From UHGV virus genome UHGV-0140516: a DNA stretch of 8,707 nt, one strand, 5' to 3'. Each line of letters opens with the position of its first letter. Within the stretch, counting starts at the first letter, position 1. This DNA is from a virus. The position numbers were made by a program, and so were the translations under genes. Of this stretch, positions 2,607-8,707 are shown one piece after another. Under the pieces are notes generated by a model that was not told the DNA's origin, ran no database searches, and worked only from the letters and a program-made list of their open reading frames with translations.

Positions 2607-2906
2607 ATGAGAACATATTTATCTGGCTTGACTGCCAGCGGTTATGCACACCCCAAAATTATCCCCGGCGCTATTTATCTGGATAAGAACGGTAACAGAG
2701 TAACGGTAAAAGAACTGATGTTTGACCGTGTGTATTTTATTCGTGATGGATATTCATTTCATAGTTCGCTGAACGTGGAGATCTTTATTAGCAGATTCAG
2801 GCGGGAAATCCCGCTTTCCGGAAATAACCATGTGTCATGTCTGGATGTTGATAAAAAACTACAGGAACTGAAAAACATGATTGCCGCGTGGAGAGAGCAG
2901 AAATGA
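2607..2906 (+). CDS. Hypothetical protein (99 aa), unknown function
   Basis: Starts 7 nt after the upstream stop. Its TGA (2904-2906) overlaps the primase ATG (2903-2905) in an ATGA arrangement. No recognisable motif. Confidence 0.5.
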   Translation: MRTYLSGLTASGYAHPKIIPGAIYLDKNGNRVTVKELMFDRVYFIRDGYSFHSSLNVEIFISRFRREIPLSGNNHVSCLDVDKKLQELKNMIAAWREQK

Positions 2907-4720
2907 AAAAAGCGCCAAATTTAAAACACCAGCCGCGTGACAAAATGACGGAAGTCATCATTTTTGCGGGTAGTAATGCGTGGGCACATGCGAAGCAGTG
3001 GCAGGAACAGGACGGGCGACTGGCTGGCGATAACGTGCCTCCTGTCTGGCTTGGAGAGCAACAACTTGCCGAACTGGACAACCTGCAAATCGTACCGGAC
3101 GGACGCTATCGCGTGCGTCTCTATCAGGCGGGGTTATTGCGTCCGGGGCTTGTTAATACCATCGGGCAGAAACTGGCAGTGGCAGGTGTCAGGGATGCTG
3201 ATTATTACCCTGAAGGAATGCACAGCCAGAAACGGGAGAACTGGCGCGAATATCTGGAACGTGAACGGGCAGAGCAGGCGGAAAAGAAAAAGGTAGTTGA
3301 ACTGCCTGTAAAGAAAAAAGAGCGGGTAAAAGACGATAACGCTTCATCACTGGCGCTTAACCAGATGGGAGCAAGTCAACGCGGCGAAGTTCTCCTGGCA
3401 CATTATGGCGGTGAACTGGCGATTCATGCTGACTCTGACACTGTTCACCATTACAACGGCGTTGTATGGGAGCCAGTACAGGATAAAGAATTACAGCGAG
3501 CTATGGCACAGATTTTCATTGATGCGGAGATCAGCTATTCGCAGAACGCCATTAAATCGGCGGTCGATACCATGAAGTTAAGTTTGCCTGTAATGGGGAA
3601 TACAGCCCGTAACCTGATTGGATTCAGTAACGGGGTATTTGATACCAGAACAGGTAATTTTCGGGAGCATAACAAAAACGACTGGTTGTTAATTGCCAGT
3701 GAATTACCTTTCAGCCCACCAGCAGAGGGGGAAACGCTGGCAACACATGCGCCGAATTTCTGGAAGTGGTTACGCCGTTCGGTGGCTGAGAATGACCGCA
3801 AGGCGGATCGCGTACTGGCTGCATTATTCATGGTGCTGGCGAACCGGTACGACTGGCAGTTATTCATTGAGGTAACAGGTCCAGGGGGAAGTGGTAAAAG
3901 CGTGATGGCGGAGATTTGCACCATGCTGGCGGGTAAGGCCAACACAGTATCGGCAAGCATGAAGGCGCTGGAAGATGCAAGGGAACGCGCGTTAGTGGTT
4001 GGCTTTTCGCTGATTATCATGCCGGATATGACCCGCTACGCTGGTGATGGGGCAGGGATTAAGGCTATTACAGGCGGTGACAAGGTGGCAATTGACCCGA
4101 AACACAAAGCCCCCTACTCAACGCGTATTCCGGCAGTAGTGCTGGCGGTTAACAATAACGCCATGTCATTCAGTGACCGCAGCGGGGGGATCTCACGTCG
4201 TCGGGTGATATTCAATTTTTCGGAAGTTGTACCGGAGAACGAACGCGATCCAATGCTGGCGGAAAAAATAGAAGGTGAGCTGGCGGTAGTGATTCGCCAT
4301 CTGCTTACACGGTTTGCTGACCAGGACGAAGCCAGACGCCTGTTATATGAGCAGCAGAAATCTGAAGAAGCACTGGCGATAAAGCGAGAGGGGGATTCGC
4401 TGGTGGACTTCTGCGGCTATCTCATGGCGTCGGTAATGTGTGATGGCCTGTTAGTGGGTAATGCTGAAATTGTGCCATTCAGCCCACGCAGGTATCTCTA
4501 TCATGCCTATCTGGCTTATATGAGGGCACATGGGTTTGGTAAACCTGTAACACTGACGCGCTTCGGTAAAGATATGCCGGGGGCAATGGCGGAATATGGC
4601 AGGGAGTATATGAAACGGAAAACGAAGCACGGTTTTTGTTCAAACGTGACACTGACGGAGGAATCAGAAGACTGGATGCCATCATGTGTATCGGTCACTA
4701 ATGACGATAGTAAAAATTAA
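2903..4720 (+). CDS. P4-alpha-like primase/helicase replication protein (D5-type NTPase)
   Basis: 605-aa ORF. ATG at 2903 is preceded by GGAGAGAG at 2890-2897; the track start at 2888 is GTG. Walker A GPGGSGKS is encoded at 3878-3901, in frame. Followed immediately by the cognate-type iteron array. Large and well anchored. Confidence 0.85.
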   Translation: MKKAPNLKHQPRDKMTEVIIFAGSNAWAHAKQWQEQDGRLAGDNVPPVWLGEQQLAELDNLQIVPDGRYRVRLYQAGLLRPGLVNTIGQKLAVAGVRDADYYPEGMHSQKRENWREYLERERAEQAEKKKVVELPVKKKERVKDDNASSLALNQMGASQRGEVLLAHYGGELAIHADSDTVHHYNGVVWEPVQDKELQRAMAQIFIDAEISYSQNAIKSAVDTMKLSLPVMGNTARNLIGFSNGVFDTRTGNFREHNKNDWLLIASELPFSPPAEGETLATHAPNFWKWLRRSVAENDRKADRVLAALFMVLANRYDWQLFIEVTGPGGSGKSVMAEICTMLAGKANTVSASMKALEDARERALVVGFSLIIMPDMTRYAGDGAGIKAITGGDKVAIDPKHKAPYSTRIPAVVLAVNNNAMSFSDRSGGISRRRVIFNFSEVVPENERDPMLAEKIEGELAVVIRHLLTRFADQDEARRLLYEQQKSEEALAIKREGDSLVDFCGYLMASVMCDGLLVGNAEIVPFSPRRYLYHAYLAYMRAHGFGKPVTLTRFGKDMPGAMAEYGREYMKRKTKHGFCSNVTLTEESEDWMPSCVSVTNDDSKN

Positions 4721-5007: not shown

Positions 5008-5253
5008 ATGACAGCGAAGCACACAAAAAAATCACAATCGCACGCCCTTGATTTGACGGAACACTGGTTAAGGGTGTCGATAAAAATCATCGACCGCAAC
5101 GCCGGGGAAGGATATGCGAAAGCACATCCCGAACTGATTAGCGCATTCATGACAACGGCAGCTGCAAACTTTGCCACGCTGACAGAACGGGAGATTGCCG
5201 AAGCGGAACAGGTGACAACCATCAACGTTAAAACCGGAGAGCAGACAGCATGA
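5008..5253 (+). CDS. Hypothetical protein (81 aa), translationally coupled to the SSB-like gene
   Basis: ORF starts just downstream of the iteron array. Its TGA (5251-5253) overlaps the ATG (5250-5252) of the next gene. No recognisable motif; weak RBS. Confidence 0.45.
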   Translation: MTAKHTKKSQSHALDLTEHWLRVSIKIIDRNAGEGYAKAHPELISAFMTTAAANFATLTEREIAEAEQVTTINVKTGEQTA

Positions 5254-5672
5254 CAGCACAGATAGCGGCTTACGGGCGGCTGGTGGCTGACCCGCAGTTA
5301 AAGACCACCAGCAAGGGTACACAAATGACGATGGCTAGTATGGCGGTCCCCCTTCCGTGCAGCCAGGCAGATGACGGAACGGCGACGATGTGGTTATCCG
5401 TCCTGGCGTTTGGCAGACAGGCCGACGCACTGGCAAAACACCACAAAGGCGAACTGGTGAGCGTGGCGGGTAACATGCAGGTAAGCCAGTGGACAGGCCA
5501 GAACGGCGAAACGCGGCAGGGCTGGCAGGTTATCGCAGACAGCGTAATCAGTGCGAGAACGGCGCGACCGGGCGGCAAAAAAGGCCAGCAAGGGCAGGCT
5601 ACTGACGCACTGAACAGGGCAAAACAACAGGCGGGTAACGATGATCCGTACGGGGATAACATACCGTTTTAA
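5250..5672 (+). CDS. ssb: Single-stranded DNA-binding protein family (short SSB-like OB-fold protein with C-terminal DNIPF tip)
   Basis: Aligns by eye to E. coli SSB across the OB fold (G-x-L-x-x-DP; W-x-x-V-x-x-FG-x-x-A; KG-x-x-V-x-x-x-G-x-x-x-x-x-x-WT-x-Q-x-G-x-x-R). Ends in DDPYGDNIPF, resembling the SSB DDDIPF partner-binding tip. Shorter than host SSB (140 versus about 178 aa). Confidence 0.7.
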   Translation: MTAQIAAYGRLVADPQLKTTSKGTQMTMASMAVPLPCSQADDGTATMWLSVLAFGRQADALAKHHKGELVSVAGNMQVSQWTGQNGETRQGWQVIADSVISARTARPGGKKGQQGQATDALNRAKQQAGNDDPYGDNIPF

Positions 5673-5923: not shown

Positions 5924-6130
5924 ATGGCAGAAGAGAAAAAAGGCGGGGTGACAGTTTACATAAGCCCAGACATCGTGGAGGCGCTCAAGGAACGCCACCA
6001 GCAGAACGTAAAAGCAGGCATTGCGGCAGGACTTGAGCCGCTGGCGATGGTTGAGCCGTCAACAGGCTGGCAGGTACGCGCCTATTTACGCGCGGCGCTG
6101 GGCATGAATCAGACTCATGGGGGTGAATAA
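5924..6130 (+). CDS. Hypothetical protein (68 aa), first ORF of the head module
   Basis: ATG at 5924 with AAAGAGGAA at 5906-5914. The track start at 5891 is GTG inside the palindrome, so it is disfavoured. The stop TAA overlaps the capsid-gene ATG (TAATG at 6128-6132). Confidence 0.5.
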   Translation: MAEEKKGGVTVYISPDIVEALKERHQQNVKAGIAAGLEPLAMVEPSTGWQVRAYLRAALGMNQTHGGE

Positions 6131-7185
6131 TGACAGGCAAAGCAACGGCACTTAACACTAACCAGCTTTTCGCGTACCTGAATCGTGGGGATATTTCGGA
6201 ATTTAAATTCAGTCCGCTGTTTACGTCGCTGTTTTTCCCGAACGTGGCAACCTTCAACACGCAGGACATCATGTTAGATACCCTGGATATTGAAGAAGTC
6301 ACCATGTCGGCTTTTTGTTCGCCTATGGTGGGGAGTCAGGTTCAGCGCGATAAAGGGTACGAAACAAGCACTATCCGCCCTGGCTACATGAAACCAAAAC
6401 ACGAAATCGATCCATCAAAAACCATCATGCGCATGGCTGGAGAAGATCCGGCACAGCTTAACGATCCAACTTATCGCCGTATGCGCCTGATTACTGGCAA
6501 CATGCGCCGCCAGGTAAACGCTATTAAAGCTCGCATAGAATGGCTGGCGGTGAATGCGGTCACGACCGGAAAAAACATCATTGAGGGCGAAGGAATAAAT
6601 AGATACGAAATCGATTGGAAAATCCCGACTAAAAACATCATTACGCAGGGATCGGGCAAAAAGTGGTCTGAGGCAGATAAGGAAACACACGATCCAATCT
6701 ATGACATCGAACTATACACCGATCAGGCTGGTTGCCCCGCCAACGTCATGATTATGGGCGCTGAGGTATGGCGCACGTTACGCAGCTTTAAAAAATTCCG
6801 TGAACTGTACGATCTTTCCCGTGGTTCAGAATCCGCCGCAGAGCTGGCCTGTAAAAACCTGGGCGAAGTAGTGAGCTTTAAAGGCTATCTGGGTGATCTG
6901 GCCCTTATCGTCTATTCCGGCAAATACACCGACAGCGATGGCACCGAAAAATATTTCCTTGAGCCTGATTTGCTTGTCCTGGGCAACACTAACAATAAAG
7001 GGCTGGTGGCCTATGGTGCGATTATGGATCCGGAAGCGGTAAGAACTGGCGCAACGCAAAACATGTACTACCCGAAAAACTGGATTGAGGATGGCGATCC
7101 GGCGATTGAGTACGTGCAGACGCACAGCGCACCGCAGCCGGTACCGGCAGATATTCGCAAATTTGTTACCGTCAAAATTGCTTAA
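6130..7185 (+). CDS. Major capsid protein, lambda gpE family
   Basis: 351-aa product aligns to lambda gpE over its whole length by eye: KFxPLF...LFF near the N-terminus, PGY(V/M)KPKHE, DP-x-x-L-x-DP-x-YRR-x-R-x-I-x-x-NMR, SYKG / SFKG, VVYSG / IVYSG, LGNT, YPKNW and a C-terminal GDPA. Similar length (351 versus 341 aa). Confidence 0.9.
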   Translation: MTGKATALNTNQLFAYLNRGDISEFKFSPLFTSLFFPNVATFNTQDIMLDTLDIEEVTMSAFCSPMVGSQVQRDKGYETSTIRPGYMKPKHEIDPSKTIMRMAGEDPAQLNDPTYRRMRLITGNMRRQVNAIKARIEWLAVNAVTTGKNIIEGEGINRYEIDWKIPTKNIITQGSGKKWSEADKETHDPIYDIELYTDQAGCPANVMIMGAEVWRTLRSFKKFRELYDLSRGSESAAELACKNLGEVVSFKGYLGDLALIVYSGKYTDSDGTEKYFLEPDLLVLGNTNNKGLVAYGAIMDPEAVRTGATQNMYYPKNWIEDGDPAIEYVQTHSAPQPVPADIRKFVTVKIA

Positions 7186-7196
7186 CGGGGGATTCT

Positions 7197-7532
7197 ATGA
7201 ACACTCCATACATTGAGTTATTTGCAGGCAGTCAGCAGGTATCCACGACGCTGGTACATTTTGCCGCTGATGCTGGAGTTATTCAGGAATTTACCCCGCT
7301 GATGCTGGCGGACAATGGCGAGTTTAAGCCGTGGGATGGTCAGGAATCTGGCAAGGCTGTTTATCTGACCTCGTACCCCGTTGACACGTCGACGCAGAAA
7401 TCAGCACAGTGCTATAAGACGGGGATATTTAATATCGCCGCCGTTAACTGGCCTGAGAGCGTCGACACCGATGCGAAAAAATGCGCCGCCTTTGCGGGTT
7501 CTGGCGTATCCGTTCAGCCACTGGCCCGATAA
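7197..7532 (+). CDS. Head decoration protein, lambda gpD family
   Basis: 111-aa product shares with lambda gpD the motifs TPLML, WDG, YK(S/T)G-x-F, WPE and KK-x-x-AFAG. Near-identical length (111 versus 110 aa). RBS GGGGGA upstream. Confidence 0.8.
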   Translation: MNTPYIELFAGSQQVSTTLVHFAADAGVIQEFTPLMLADNGEFKPWDGQESGKAVYLTSYPVDTSTQKSAQCYKTGIFNIAAVNWPESVDTDAKKCAAFAGSGVSVQPLAR

Positions 7533-7544
7533 GCAGAGGGAACG

Positions 7545-7958
7545 ATGGCAACGAATGAAAGTATCATGACGCTACCGCTGGCGAGTAAATTTAAGGCCGA
7601 AGCGCGGGCAATGGCTGACAGAGGTTTATCAACCTACGAGGCCGTATATCAACTTAACAGCCTGGAAGAGAAGGACAAGCCGCGCTCTGATGCGATTATG
7701 GCGCTTGATGAATCTGGCGACTATCAGCCGCTGTTACGTGCAATGGCAAACGTGCCTTGTATCGATGTTGGTACGGCTAAAAGCATCCTTAGCATGACCA
7801 TAGAGCAGGAACGCCAGAAGGTTGCACCAGAGCTTACCGCAGCCTTTGAAAACTTTATGGACATGCACAGCCCGAAAGCCGTATCAGCTGGTATGGCATA
7901 CGCTGGCAGAAACCCGGGCGATGATGGCGACATCGATCGCATACTGAAAACCATCTGA
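7545..7958 (+). CDS. Hypothetical protein (137 aa) between the decoration gene and cos; function unknown
   Basis: Good RBS (AGAGGGAA 5 nt upstream of the ATG). Followed by a strong terminator. No similarity to lambda FI, FII or W that I can see. Confidence 0.6.
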   Translation: MATNESIMTLPLASKFKAEARAMADRGLSTYEAVYQLNSLEEKDKPRSDAIMALDESGDYQPLLRAMANVPCIDVGTAKSILSMTIEQERQKVAPELTAAFENFMDMHSPKAVSAGMAYAGRNPGDDGDIDRILKTI

Positions 7959-7962
7959 GACA

Positions 7963-7987
7963 AGGCCGGAGAAATCCGGCTTTTTTT
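7963..7987 (+). terminator. Rho-independent terminator ending the head-gene operon
   Basis: Stem GGCCGGA (7964-7970), loop GAAA, stem TCCGGC (7975-7980), then a T7 run (7981-7987). Near-duplicate of the terminator at 5687-5710. Confidence 0.75.
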
Positions 7988-8160
7988 ACGGGTCCTTTCC
8001 GGCATATGAACCCGTTACGGGGCGGCGACCTCGCGGTTTTTCGCTATTTATGAGCTTTTTCAGGGTGGTGGTGGTGGTTTTGTTGTTTGCTCTATCTCCA
8101 TGAATAAAAAGGGAAAGATAACACCAACACACCAACCTGAAACCTTGACCAAGTTGGGAT
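7988..8160 (+). other. cos: Lambda-type cos site: cosQ-like element, cosN with a 12-nt cohesive-end sequence identical to lambda, and a divergent cosB-like region
   Basis: ACGGGTCCTTTCCGG (7988-8002) matches the lambda right-end cosQ region. GTTACG then GGGCGGCGACCT (8020-8031) is the lambda cohesive-end sequence. CGCGGTTTTTCGCTATTTATGA (8032-8053) matches lambda left-end bases 13-35 with about one substitution. Downstream (8054-8160) differs from lambda cosB and contains GGTGGTGGTGGTGG (8065-8078) and the oppositely oriented CACCAACACACCAACC (8123-8138). Confidence 0.85.
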
Positions 8161-8164
8161 ATTG

Positions 8165-8707
8165 ATGAAATCGCACCTGATGAACAAAAAAACCATGGCG
8201 CAAAGCTGCCGGGTAAGTGCTACAGCATTCGACAAGTGGGGAGTGACTCCCGTTGAACGTAAAGGCCGTGAGGCGTTTTATGATGTTGCCAGCGTGATAG
8301 ACAATAGGGTTAACAATGCAATTAGCCAGCTTACAAACGACAAAGGCGAGATTGATGATGATGAACTCTTACGAGTCAGGATCAGATTACTGACAGCACA
8401 GGCGGAGGCGCAGGAACTTAAAAACGAGCGCGATCGCGGTGACGTGATTGATACAGAGTTTTGCATGTACGCCCTTTCAAAACTGGCGAGTCAGATTTCA
8501 TCAATCATGGACAGCCTCCCGCTTACTATGCAAAGGAGCTTCCCACAGATGACCCCCGTCATGCTGGATGGCCTGAAAAAAGAAGTTGTCAGAGCCTGTA
8601 ACGCATGCACAAAACTTGATGAAAACATCCCGCGAATGCTGTCCGATTATCTGATGGAAACTACCGGAAATGTGCCTGATAAGTTTCAGCCGGATAAAGA
8701 CAAGTAA
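8165..8707 (+). CDS. Terminase small subunit, lambda Nu1 family
   Basis: Lambda Nu1 LTRAQADAQELKNARDSAEVVETAFCTFVLSRIAGEIASILDGLPLSVQRRFPE...LDELIPGLLSEY aligns with LTAQAEAQELKNERDRGDVIDTEFCMYALSKLASQISSIMDSLPLTMQRSFPQ...LDENIPRMLSDY. The N-terminal NKK...wHTH region is more divergent. First ATG is at 8165; the track start at 8162 is TTG; the ATG at 8180 matches the Nu1 N-terminus better. Position just downstream of cos, as in lambda. Confidence 0.85.
   Translation: MKSHLMNKKTMAQSCRVSATAFDKWGVTPVERKGREAFYDVASVIDNRVNNAISQLTNDKGEIDDDELLRVRIRLLTAQAEAQELKNERDRGDVIDTEFCMYALSKLASQISSIMDSLPLTMQRSFPQMTPVMLDGLKKEVVRACNACTKLDENIPRMLSDYLMETTGNVPDKFQPDKDK

Follow-up and report, generated by a model that had tools for sequence, protein, structure and literature searches.

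In Gram-negative phage-inducible chromosomal islands (PICIs) that EcCICFT073 represents as a type, the island cosB is read by the island protein Rpp together with the small terminase subunit (TerS) of the helper phage, cosQ and cosN are conserved for the helper's large terminase subunit (TerL), and an equivalent of the R3 site has been proposed at bp 48-65 (Fillol-Salom 2018, 2019; Murialdo & Feiss 2022). Published satellite-specific packaging in cos-type Gram-negative islands has been explained only via Rpp, which needs the helper TerS, and for helper-dependent induction and transfer in EcCICFT073-type islands the literature covers EcCICFT073 only. TerS-encoding PICIs of E. coli were noted, not characterised (Fillol-Salom 2018), and our full-text literature search returned no paper describing the cosB of a TerS island, its N15-type domain or the chimeric small terminases reported below. 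Here we describe a stretch of 8,707 nucleotides (UHGV virus genome UHGV-0140516, hereafter the window) in which positions 7988-8160 probably represent the functional cos of a TerS-encoding, EcCICFT073-type PICI. Positions within cos are given in bp counted from the first base of cosN, and the coordinates of all features are collected in Table 1.

Our comparison used reference cos regions of lambda, phage 21 and N15 taken from their sequence records. A lambda-derived pattern with 38 specified bases, ACGGGTCCTTTCCGG-N11-GTTACGGGGCGGCGACCTCGCGG, gave a single match, at 7988-8036 with 0 mismatches, and no match in 200 dinucleotide shuffles (chance expectation 0.00). The core of the region (-35..+43) is 85% identical to lambda, as compared to DNA identities of 53% for terS and Nu1, 55% for the capsid gene and E, 52% for the decoration gene and D, and 41% for cosB (+44..+145), for which the shuffled level is 40%. 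At the amino acid level the neighbouring proteins are 43% (gpE), 37% (gpD) and 37% (Nu1) identical to those of lambda. A first-pass annotation, made from the letters of the window alone, had claimed that the cohesive end, the preceding GTTACG and cosQ match lambda almost base for base next to moderately similar proteins, and that cosB and the flanking genes are diverged. All of this was borne out; the lambda cos sequence on which it relied agrees with the lambda record, and the alignments to lambda, 21 and N15 put its identity above that of the flanking coding DNA. When 7900-8200 was searched by sensitive blastn in 50,697 phage records, alignments were confined to about 7983-8065, with 83-86% identity to lambda-like phages, and never reached the flanks.

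Within this core, the cosQ-like element (15 of 15 bases as in lambda) is followed by cosN at the lambda interval of 17 nt, the arrangement of a lambda-like cos. The spacer between them is variable in sequence (8/17 vs lambda), and the TACG at its end is invariant across island lineages, as is GGGTCC of cosQ in nine divergent island lineages save for a one-base register shift in L100. The cohesive-end sequence is flanked by ..TTACG and CGCGG.. as in lambda-like cosN sites, with predicted nicks at 8019/8020 on the top and 8031/8032 on the bottom strand. Downstream, bp +13..+43 agree with lambda in 26 and with phage 21 in 25 of 31 positions, and it is here that the record of phage 21 has its I2 annotation; CGC and CGCT..TTATGA in this spacer are invariant across the island lineages. 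We propose that cosQ, the left half of cosN and +13..+43 have been kept helper-like because the helper TerL reads them. The only terminator called by the scanner is the cosN palindrome itself. The hairpin upstream of cos, whose T-run directly adjoins cosQ, was not reported by this consensus terminator scan and is therefore called from sequence only.

Variation of the cosN 12-mer within the family is confined to bp 6-12, and no association with the type of TerS was seen. The variants GGGCGGCAGACG, GGGCGTCAGGCG, GGGCGGAAGGCG, GGGCGGCTGACG and GGGCGTCAGCGT occur with the same TerS and cosB (L014, L019-L021, L038, L039, L060-L068, L100, L101). Co-variation of the 12-mer with the TerS C-terminus was considered and not seen, one C-terminus occurring with at least four cosN variants. 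The same variation at bp 6-12 is known from natural lambda-like phages and was explained by TerL being anchored through the contact of TerS with R3 (Feiss et al. 2015, PMC4669245).

The cosB region was compared in 80 related loci from viral contigs with TerS proteins 83-100% identical to that of the window (the close relatives), and in an alignment of nine island lineages with TerS identities down to 56%. In the nine-lineage alignment the invariant columns cluster at cosQ, TACGGGGCG, CGCT..TTATGA and two blocks of cosB, A and B; block A has 14 such columns out of 18. Both blocks are also held in the 51 unique cos regions of the close relatives, with variable positions just before each of them (8062-8068 and 8118-8124). 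Block A takes the position of R3 in lambda (+50-65) and in N15 (+48-59), where R3 GAGGTTGTTGTT was mapped by mutagenesis to bp 48-59 with bp 54-59 as the most critical part (PMC4669245). Block B lies at about the position of the lambda R2 core (+114-120) and is likewise inverted. The conservation pattern thus supports the two candidate R sites as the most conserved parts of cosB. In the first-pass annotation two motifs had been proposed as R-site analogues in opposite orientation. This idea agrees with the alignments in kind, orientation and approximate place. The two strings are indeed present, with coordinates off by one (GGTGGTGGTGGTGG at 8064-8077, CACCAACACACCAACC at 8122-8137), and relatives retain each of them only in part, with conserved cores at 8069-8087 and 8125-8142; the real inverted repeat has its arms at 8058-8070 and 8130-8142 (12/13 complementary).

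A second inverted pair, 8075-8087 and 8183-8195, is also 12/13 complementary and extends into terS. Two 13-mer inverted repeats in 8044-8200 compare to 0.024 expected, and two were reached in 0.8% of shuffles. By analogy to N15, where the remote element rR2 lies inside gene 1 (PMC4669245), the arm within terS is a possible remote inverted R element; its conservation is uninformative because it lies in coding sequence. The A/T-rich spacer between the blocks might be a bend or a site of the integration host factor (IHF) type. Lambda-type or 21-type R boxes were sought in the window cosB and rejected, the identity to lambda being at the shuffled level. Searches for known RNA families in 7800-8400 gave only far-sub-threshold Rfam hits, which were caused by the inverted repeat.

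Two other islands are worth describing for their cosB. The cos of L007 (11255-11420) has an R3, GGTTGTTGTTTAA at +50..+62, that is identical to the one of N15, and no terS or rpp follows; this island presumably requires a helper whose specificity is N15-type. Its block B reads GGTTGTTGTATT in reverse and hence changes together with R3. In L005 (10651-10760) an Rpp-type cosB carries ACACCACCACCAC at bp 53-65; in the window cosB this position is occupied by its reverse complement, (GGT)n.

The TerS protein encoded behind cosB belongs to the Nu1 family (PF07471). It matched Pfam Phage_Nu1 with 81 bits against a cut-off of 30, a match limited to residues 63-147, and phrog_57 over residues 1-173 (E 1e-51), and it aligned to lambda Nu1 over the full length (BLASTP, 37% identity, E 1e-35). 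Its closest phage protein is gp1 of N15 with 47.5% identity, and all 153 phage matches stayed below 60%. The similarity to lambda does not extend to the kind of DNA-binding domain: the N-terminal domain is short and N15-type, without the insertions of lambda and 21, and its SATAFDKWGVTPVERKGREAFYDV aligns to SVQAFDKWGVQPVEKRGREVFFDV of N15 gp1. As judged from these alignments, the specificity module of the island TerS is N15-like and not lambda-like. In an AlphaFold2 (AF2) model, residues 5-56 show the order strand-helix-helix-hairpin-helix that is expected for a winged helix-turn-helix. The C-terminal stretch LDENIPRMLSDYL aligns to LDELIPGLLSEYI of lambda Nu1, which lies in the segment assigned to TerL binding in the literature, so that the C-terminus may be inferred to bind the helper TerL. 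Residues 166-180 (window 8660-8704) hold a tail of 12-13 amino acids, TTGNVPDKFQPDKDK in the window and ..EKLLQKKGE in relatives, that is absent from the TerS proteins of lambda, 21 and N15. A homology of the protein to Rpp was considered and rejected, as there is no sequence similarity. A direct PDB sequence search with TerS gave no significant hit, and strong profile hits to TerS DNA-binding domains, obtained with a profile that included 21-type chimeras, were discounted because the chimeras drive them.

Among the close relatives, the 180-aa terS is found in 80/80 loci, and cosN starts 145 nt before the ATG in 79/80; in L053 a 3-base deletion reduces the distance to 142 nt. None of the 80 loci has a TerL, portal or tail gene next to terS or a large open reading frame (ORF) after it. 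The more distant island TerS lineages (56-75% identity; E. coli, Enterobacter and Citrobacter) are all island-borne as well. One group (P0099, 194 aa, in L095-L098) consists of natural chimeric island small terminases, which are nearly the same as gp1 of phage 21 over their first ~100 residues and identical to the window TerS from there on. They are preceded by a 21-type cosB with three R boxes, at a cosN-ATG distance of 188 nt as in phage 21. Islands with the N15-type TerS domain, on the other hand, have the GGT/GTT-rich block at +50..+68. From this pairing it follows that the DNA-binding domain and cosB travel together, and that the C-terminal half is specific to the islands. In the Enterobacter/Citrobacter lineage the pattern is mirrored, with a constant TerS domain and a variable C-terminus.

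The border between the helper-like core and the island cosB is best seen in L099 (4290-19700), a lambda-like prophage whose cos, Nu1 and gpA N-terminus are identical to those of lambda and whose portal gene contains an integrated, helper-embedded satellite. The satellite cos is the same as the helper cos from cosQ to bp +35 and then continues as island cosB, followed by a TerS 88% identical to that of the window. In L009 and L010 the TerS and cosB are 100% identical to the window and stand behind a different upstream backbone and cosQ-cosN spacer, and in several E. coli islands the homology to the window ends exactly at 8053-8061. In L005 the ORF at the terS position is a genuine Rpp (E 4e-32 to RppC, PDB 6HLK). 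It had been suggested from the window alone that the nicking substrate stays compatible with a helper TerL while cosB goes with the island's own small subunit. Both parts gain support from the comparison: the islands have no TerL and the satellite cos in L099 is that of its helper up to +35, and N15-type and 21-type domains each stand behind the matching cosB.

In most relatives terS is followed, some 180 nt further on, by another cos in convergent orientation (L046:2850-3860, with the same layout in L035, L049 and L071). This second cos has a phage-type cosB with three R boxes, which are 21-like in L046, L049 and L071 and of the CAGATCC type in L035; an island-type and a helper-type cos therefore face each other in one island. 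Of 5426 complete E. coli genomes, 482 have this two-cos layout, Nissle 1917 among them. It is absent from the closest relatives of the window (A33, L008-L010), and the window itself ends at the terS stop codon. In E. coli PM4-5 (L006, 11150-12120) we found an exact inversion isomer of L046, with the segment between the cosN sites, including terS, flipped and the 21-type cosB placed after the upstream cosQ. A programmed inversion switch between the two cos sites appears unlikely with 5 inverted against 482 direct genomes; the inverted layout, in two sequence groups, fits occasional recombination between inverted cos cores.

Table 1. Features of the window, with positions in window coordinates and, for the blocks of cosB, in bp from the first base of cosN.
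Feature	Position	Strand	Basis or remark
Tyrosine integrase, C-terminal part	49-693
AlpA-like regulator	1027-1320
DUF4222 protein	2607-2906
D5-type primase	2888-4720
Single-stranded DNA-binding protein (SSB)	5250-5672
Lambda gpE-like major capsid protein	6130-7185
gpD-like decoration protein	7197-7532
137-aa protein	7545-7958
Terminator-like hairpin AAGGCCGGA / TCCGGCTTT with T-run	7962..7987	+	Inverted repeat and sequence; ends the upstream 137-aa gene
cosQ-like element ACGGGTCCTTTCCGG, packaging termination signal	7988..8002	+	15/15 vs lambda
cosQ-cosN spacer ending in GTTACG (8014-8019), left flank of the predicted top-strand nick	8003..8019	+	Lambda spacing
cosN cohesive-end sequence GGGCGGCGACCT	8020..8031	+	12/12 vs lambda and phage 21, 10/12 vs N15
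Conserved cosN-proximal spacer CGCGGTTTTTCGCTATTTATGAGC, region of the lambda/21 I2 site	8032..8055	+	
Block A, candidate R3, TGGTGGTGGTTTTGTTGTT	8069..8087 (bp +50..+68)	+	Conservation and position
A/T-rich spacer with conserved CTATCT..ATGAATAAAA	8088..8124	+	Partly conserved
Block B, candidate inverted R2, reverse complement TTTCAGGTTGGTGTGTTG	8125..8142 (bp +106..+123)	-	Conservation and inverted repeat
terS, 180-aa Nu1-family small terminase	8165-8707	+	
Candidate third, remote inverted element AACAAAAAAACCA	8183..8195	-	terS codons 7-10; complementary to 8075-8087

According to its ORFs and their Pfam and phrog profile matches, the window comprises most of an E. coli chromosomal island. 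Among complete genomes it is most closely matched by chromosomes of E. coli in which the genes follow the same order (int … primase … major capsid, head decoration, terminase small subunit), which is the order of the Gram-negative PICIs typified by EcCICFT073. Like these, the island has a unidirectional int-alpA-primase backbone, a size of about 10 kb (units of 10.6 kb in full-length relatives, e.g. strain A33) and no lytic, tail or large-terminase genes. One trait of the EcCICFT073 type, an Rpp gene after cos1, was not found, the ORF at this place encoding the Nu1-family TerS. Neither the window nor the full-length relatives contain genes for TerL, portal, protease or tail. A capsid-forming PICI (cf-PICI) was considered and rejected, since its own TerL, portal, protease and head-tail connectors are absent from the window and the full relatives, and an intact prophage was rejected on gene content. 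The cos and terS module (at least 80% of the query) was detected in 759 of 5426 complete E. coli genomes, about one in seven, including Nissle 1917 and O157:H7 strains, and it was found at several integration sites and inside prophages.

Some further observations concern other parts of the island. The 137-aa protein upstream of cos belongs to phrog_1999, a family without assigned function. It weakly matches phrog_53 (E 1e-8), the head-maturation proteases, at their C-terminal end, and may therefore have a scaffold-like domain. The protein was also considered as a homologue of lambda FI, which was rejected as there is no similarity. The region 1320-2280 contains no gene with family support; a 365-aa ORF at 1190-2287 overlaps the AlpA-like gene and appears spurious, and in relatives small Icd-like and YlcI/YnfO genes are annotated in this zone. 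In E. coli A33 (L002) at least three tandem copies of the island are present, with int…terS recurring at intervals of ~10.6 kb, and frameshifts are annotated in many of the genes. True tandem integration, an assembly or sequencing error, or both could account for this.

Our observations comprise identities at the sequence level, gene content, patterns of conservation and co-variation, and the co-residence of a lambda-type helper; from them we infer binding, TerL recruitment, cutting positions and packaging as follows. Upon induction of the helper, the island would replicate into concatemers, and the N15-type, putative winged helix-turn-helix domain of the island TerS would bind the island cosB at block A, as the equivalent of R3, and at the inverted block B, as the equivalent of R2. 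The Nu1-like C-terminal region of the same protein would recruit the lambda-type TerL of the helper. This TerL would nick the helper-type cosN at the two predicted positions, leaving 12-nt GGGCGGCGACCT ends, would package toward terS and would stop at the next cosQ-cosN. The cosB and the TerS DNA-binding domain would in this way form a separate, exchangeable specificity module. Gram-negative PICIs have been reported to be packaged as phage-sized concatemers, and four units of this island (~42 kb) would fit into a lambda head. A chimeric TerS consisting of the N15 domain and the lambda C-terminus works with lambda TerL, and neither the terminase of lambda nor that of 21 packages N15 cos or N15-cosB DNA (PMC4669245).

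More tentatively, and with rather less conviction than for the function of the region as a cos, we suggest that cosB and the TerS domain might represent a portable packaging-identity cassette. It would be combined with a TerS C-terminal half that is constant and specific to the island and with a cosQ/cosN core matching that of the helper, recombination taking place at the cos core. Should this be the case, satellites would have specificities orthogonal to lambda-type helpers, N15-like in the window and 21-like in the chimeras, and most relatives would gain a second packaging route in the opposite direction via the convergent helper-type cos.

A number of points weigh against the function of 7988-8160 as an island cos read by its own TerS. 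The AF2 model of TerS has a predicted local distance difference test (pLDDT) score of 69, which is weak support for the fold, with 70-80 in the DNA-binding region; the top Foldseek hits are MerR-type winged helix-turn-helix domains, none of them significant (E >=0.15), and a family profile without the chimeras reaches residues 1-98 of lambda TerS at only E 0.0034. The case for a contact between TerS and TerL is one of sequence similarity and co-residence only. Block A reads GGTGGT at bp 54-59, where N15 R3 has the critical GTTGTT; the T at 56 and 59 is kept as in N15, and a GTTGTT motif is displaced to +63..+68. No match to the IHF consensus with two or fewer mismatches was found in 8032-8165. 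For terS no sigma-70 promoter was predicted, and the terminator-like hairpin lies just upstream of cos and terS. Finally, inducing resident prophages did not lead to transfer of the TerS-encoding E. coli islands IHE3034 and 18098 in the sole published attempt to mobilise such islands (Fillol-Salom 2018).

The failed transfer would also be expected if the region were an inactive relic of a decayed lambdoid prophage in which cos and terS persist without function, and some copies are indeed pseudogenised or interrupted by insertion sequences. We regard this as very improbable nevertheless, given the intact 180-aa ORF in every sampled relative at a cosN-ATG distance fixed apart from L053, the presence of the module in 759 genomes, with various integration sites and locations within prophages, a conservation that is concentrated on functional subsites instead of being even, and a gene order that is that of a PICI and not of a prophage. 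The main rival explanation is a different one, namely that the island TerS acts in the manner of Rpp: it would co-assemble with the helper TerS via the shared Nu1 oligomerisation region, the helper TerS would contact TerL, and the mixed complexes would be redirected to the island cosB and poisoned for the helper cosB. Exactly this logic is used with Rpp by the same island family at the same genomic position, L005 having an rpp gene in place of the window terS, and residues 63-147 are the best-conserved Nu1-like part of the protein, which makes hetero-oligomers with the helper TerS plausible. However, Rpp proteins have 135-153 aa and lack the C-terminal TerL-binding segment, whereas the island TerS is full length with a Nu1-like C-terminus and has no sequence similarity to Rpp. 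We therefore hold this mode to be unlikely as the explanation of the locus, with the reservation that it and direct recruitment of the helper TerL by the island TerS are not mutually exclusive.

Less likely still is that the cosB is read by the complete terminase of an N15/Monarch-type helper, with terS redundant or a backup and the island cos a copy of that of a helper not yet sequenced. The islands of the L007 type, with the N15-identical R3 and neither terS nor rpp, would on this argument have to rely on a helper of this kind; prophages of the Monarch group that have an N15-like R3 together with R2, R1 and an IHF site are known (Feiss 2015, PMC4669245), and the second cos of many relatives has a plainly phage-type cosB. 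Yet the best TerS identity in any deposited phage is the 47.5% of N15 gp1, the 80 closest terS genes and the examined relatives of 57-64% identity are all island-borne without an adjacent TerL, and the helper that houses the module in L099 has a cosB and Nu1 of the lambda type.

The general principle, that the subsites read by TerL are conserved and the specificity subsite is diverged, is not new since it has been published for Rpp islands, and it will not surprise a specialist. The swaps of domain and cosB and an N15-type specificity inside lambda-type helpers are nevertheless useful and testable. If the proposed mechanism is true, islands would have a second route, independent of the helper TerS, to seize lambda-type packaging motors. 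The island lineages would also constitute a natural set of swapped pairs of TerS domain and cosB for studying how small terminases read DNA, and ready-made orthogonal cos/TerS parts for cosmid-like delivery vehicles could follow.

In comparison to known systems, the island is closest to the EcCICFT073-type PICIs, with which it shares int, alpA, primase, gpE-like capsid, gpD-like decoration, cos and then a small packaging gene, a cosQ/cosN near-identical to lambda-like helpers next to a cosB unrelated to that of the helper, and a recognition site proposed at about bp 48-65; the DNA that related islands of this type have in common with the window extends as far as the border between cosN and cosB. 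It differs from them by the full-length 180-aa Nu1-family TerS in place of a 135-153-aa Rpp without similarity to it, by a cosN-ATG distance of 145 nt as compared to ~102, and by two conserved blocks in cosB instead of one. Since the island TerS keeps the Nu1-like C-terminus, it need not borrow the TerS of the helper. With lambda the island has in common cosQ, cosN, their spacing and the +13..+43 region, a TerS homologous from end to end, and the geometry of a candidate R3 near +56 and inverted R2 near +116; the R-box sequences of lambda are missing, neither an IHF consensus nor an R1 was identified in the island cosB, and the DNA-binding domain lacks the insertions of lambda and 21. N15 provides the closest parallel to the specificity module, with a short DNA-binding domain in gp1 and a near-identical recognition region (AFDKWGV.PVE..GRE.F), a G/T-rich R3 at the same distance from cosN and an inverted accessory R element. 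N15 is, however, a complete phage in which TerL adjoins gp1, with a single R3 and the ATG at bp 89, whereas the island has no TerL, reads GGTGGT and not GTTGTT at bp 54-59, carries the inverted R2-like block at +106..+123 and the lambda 12-mer in cosN, and has the C-terminal tail of 12-13 aa. The logic of a satellite TerS working with the TerL of the helper is classical for the pac-type staphylococcal pathogenicity islands (SaPIs). SaPI1 and SaPIbov1 achieve satellite-specific packaging in this way, as is proposed here; the SaPIs do so by headful packaging from pac in Gram-positive hosts with an unrelated TerS family, in contrast to the cos-type packaging with defined cohesive ends that is predicted for the island in the window.

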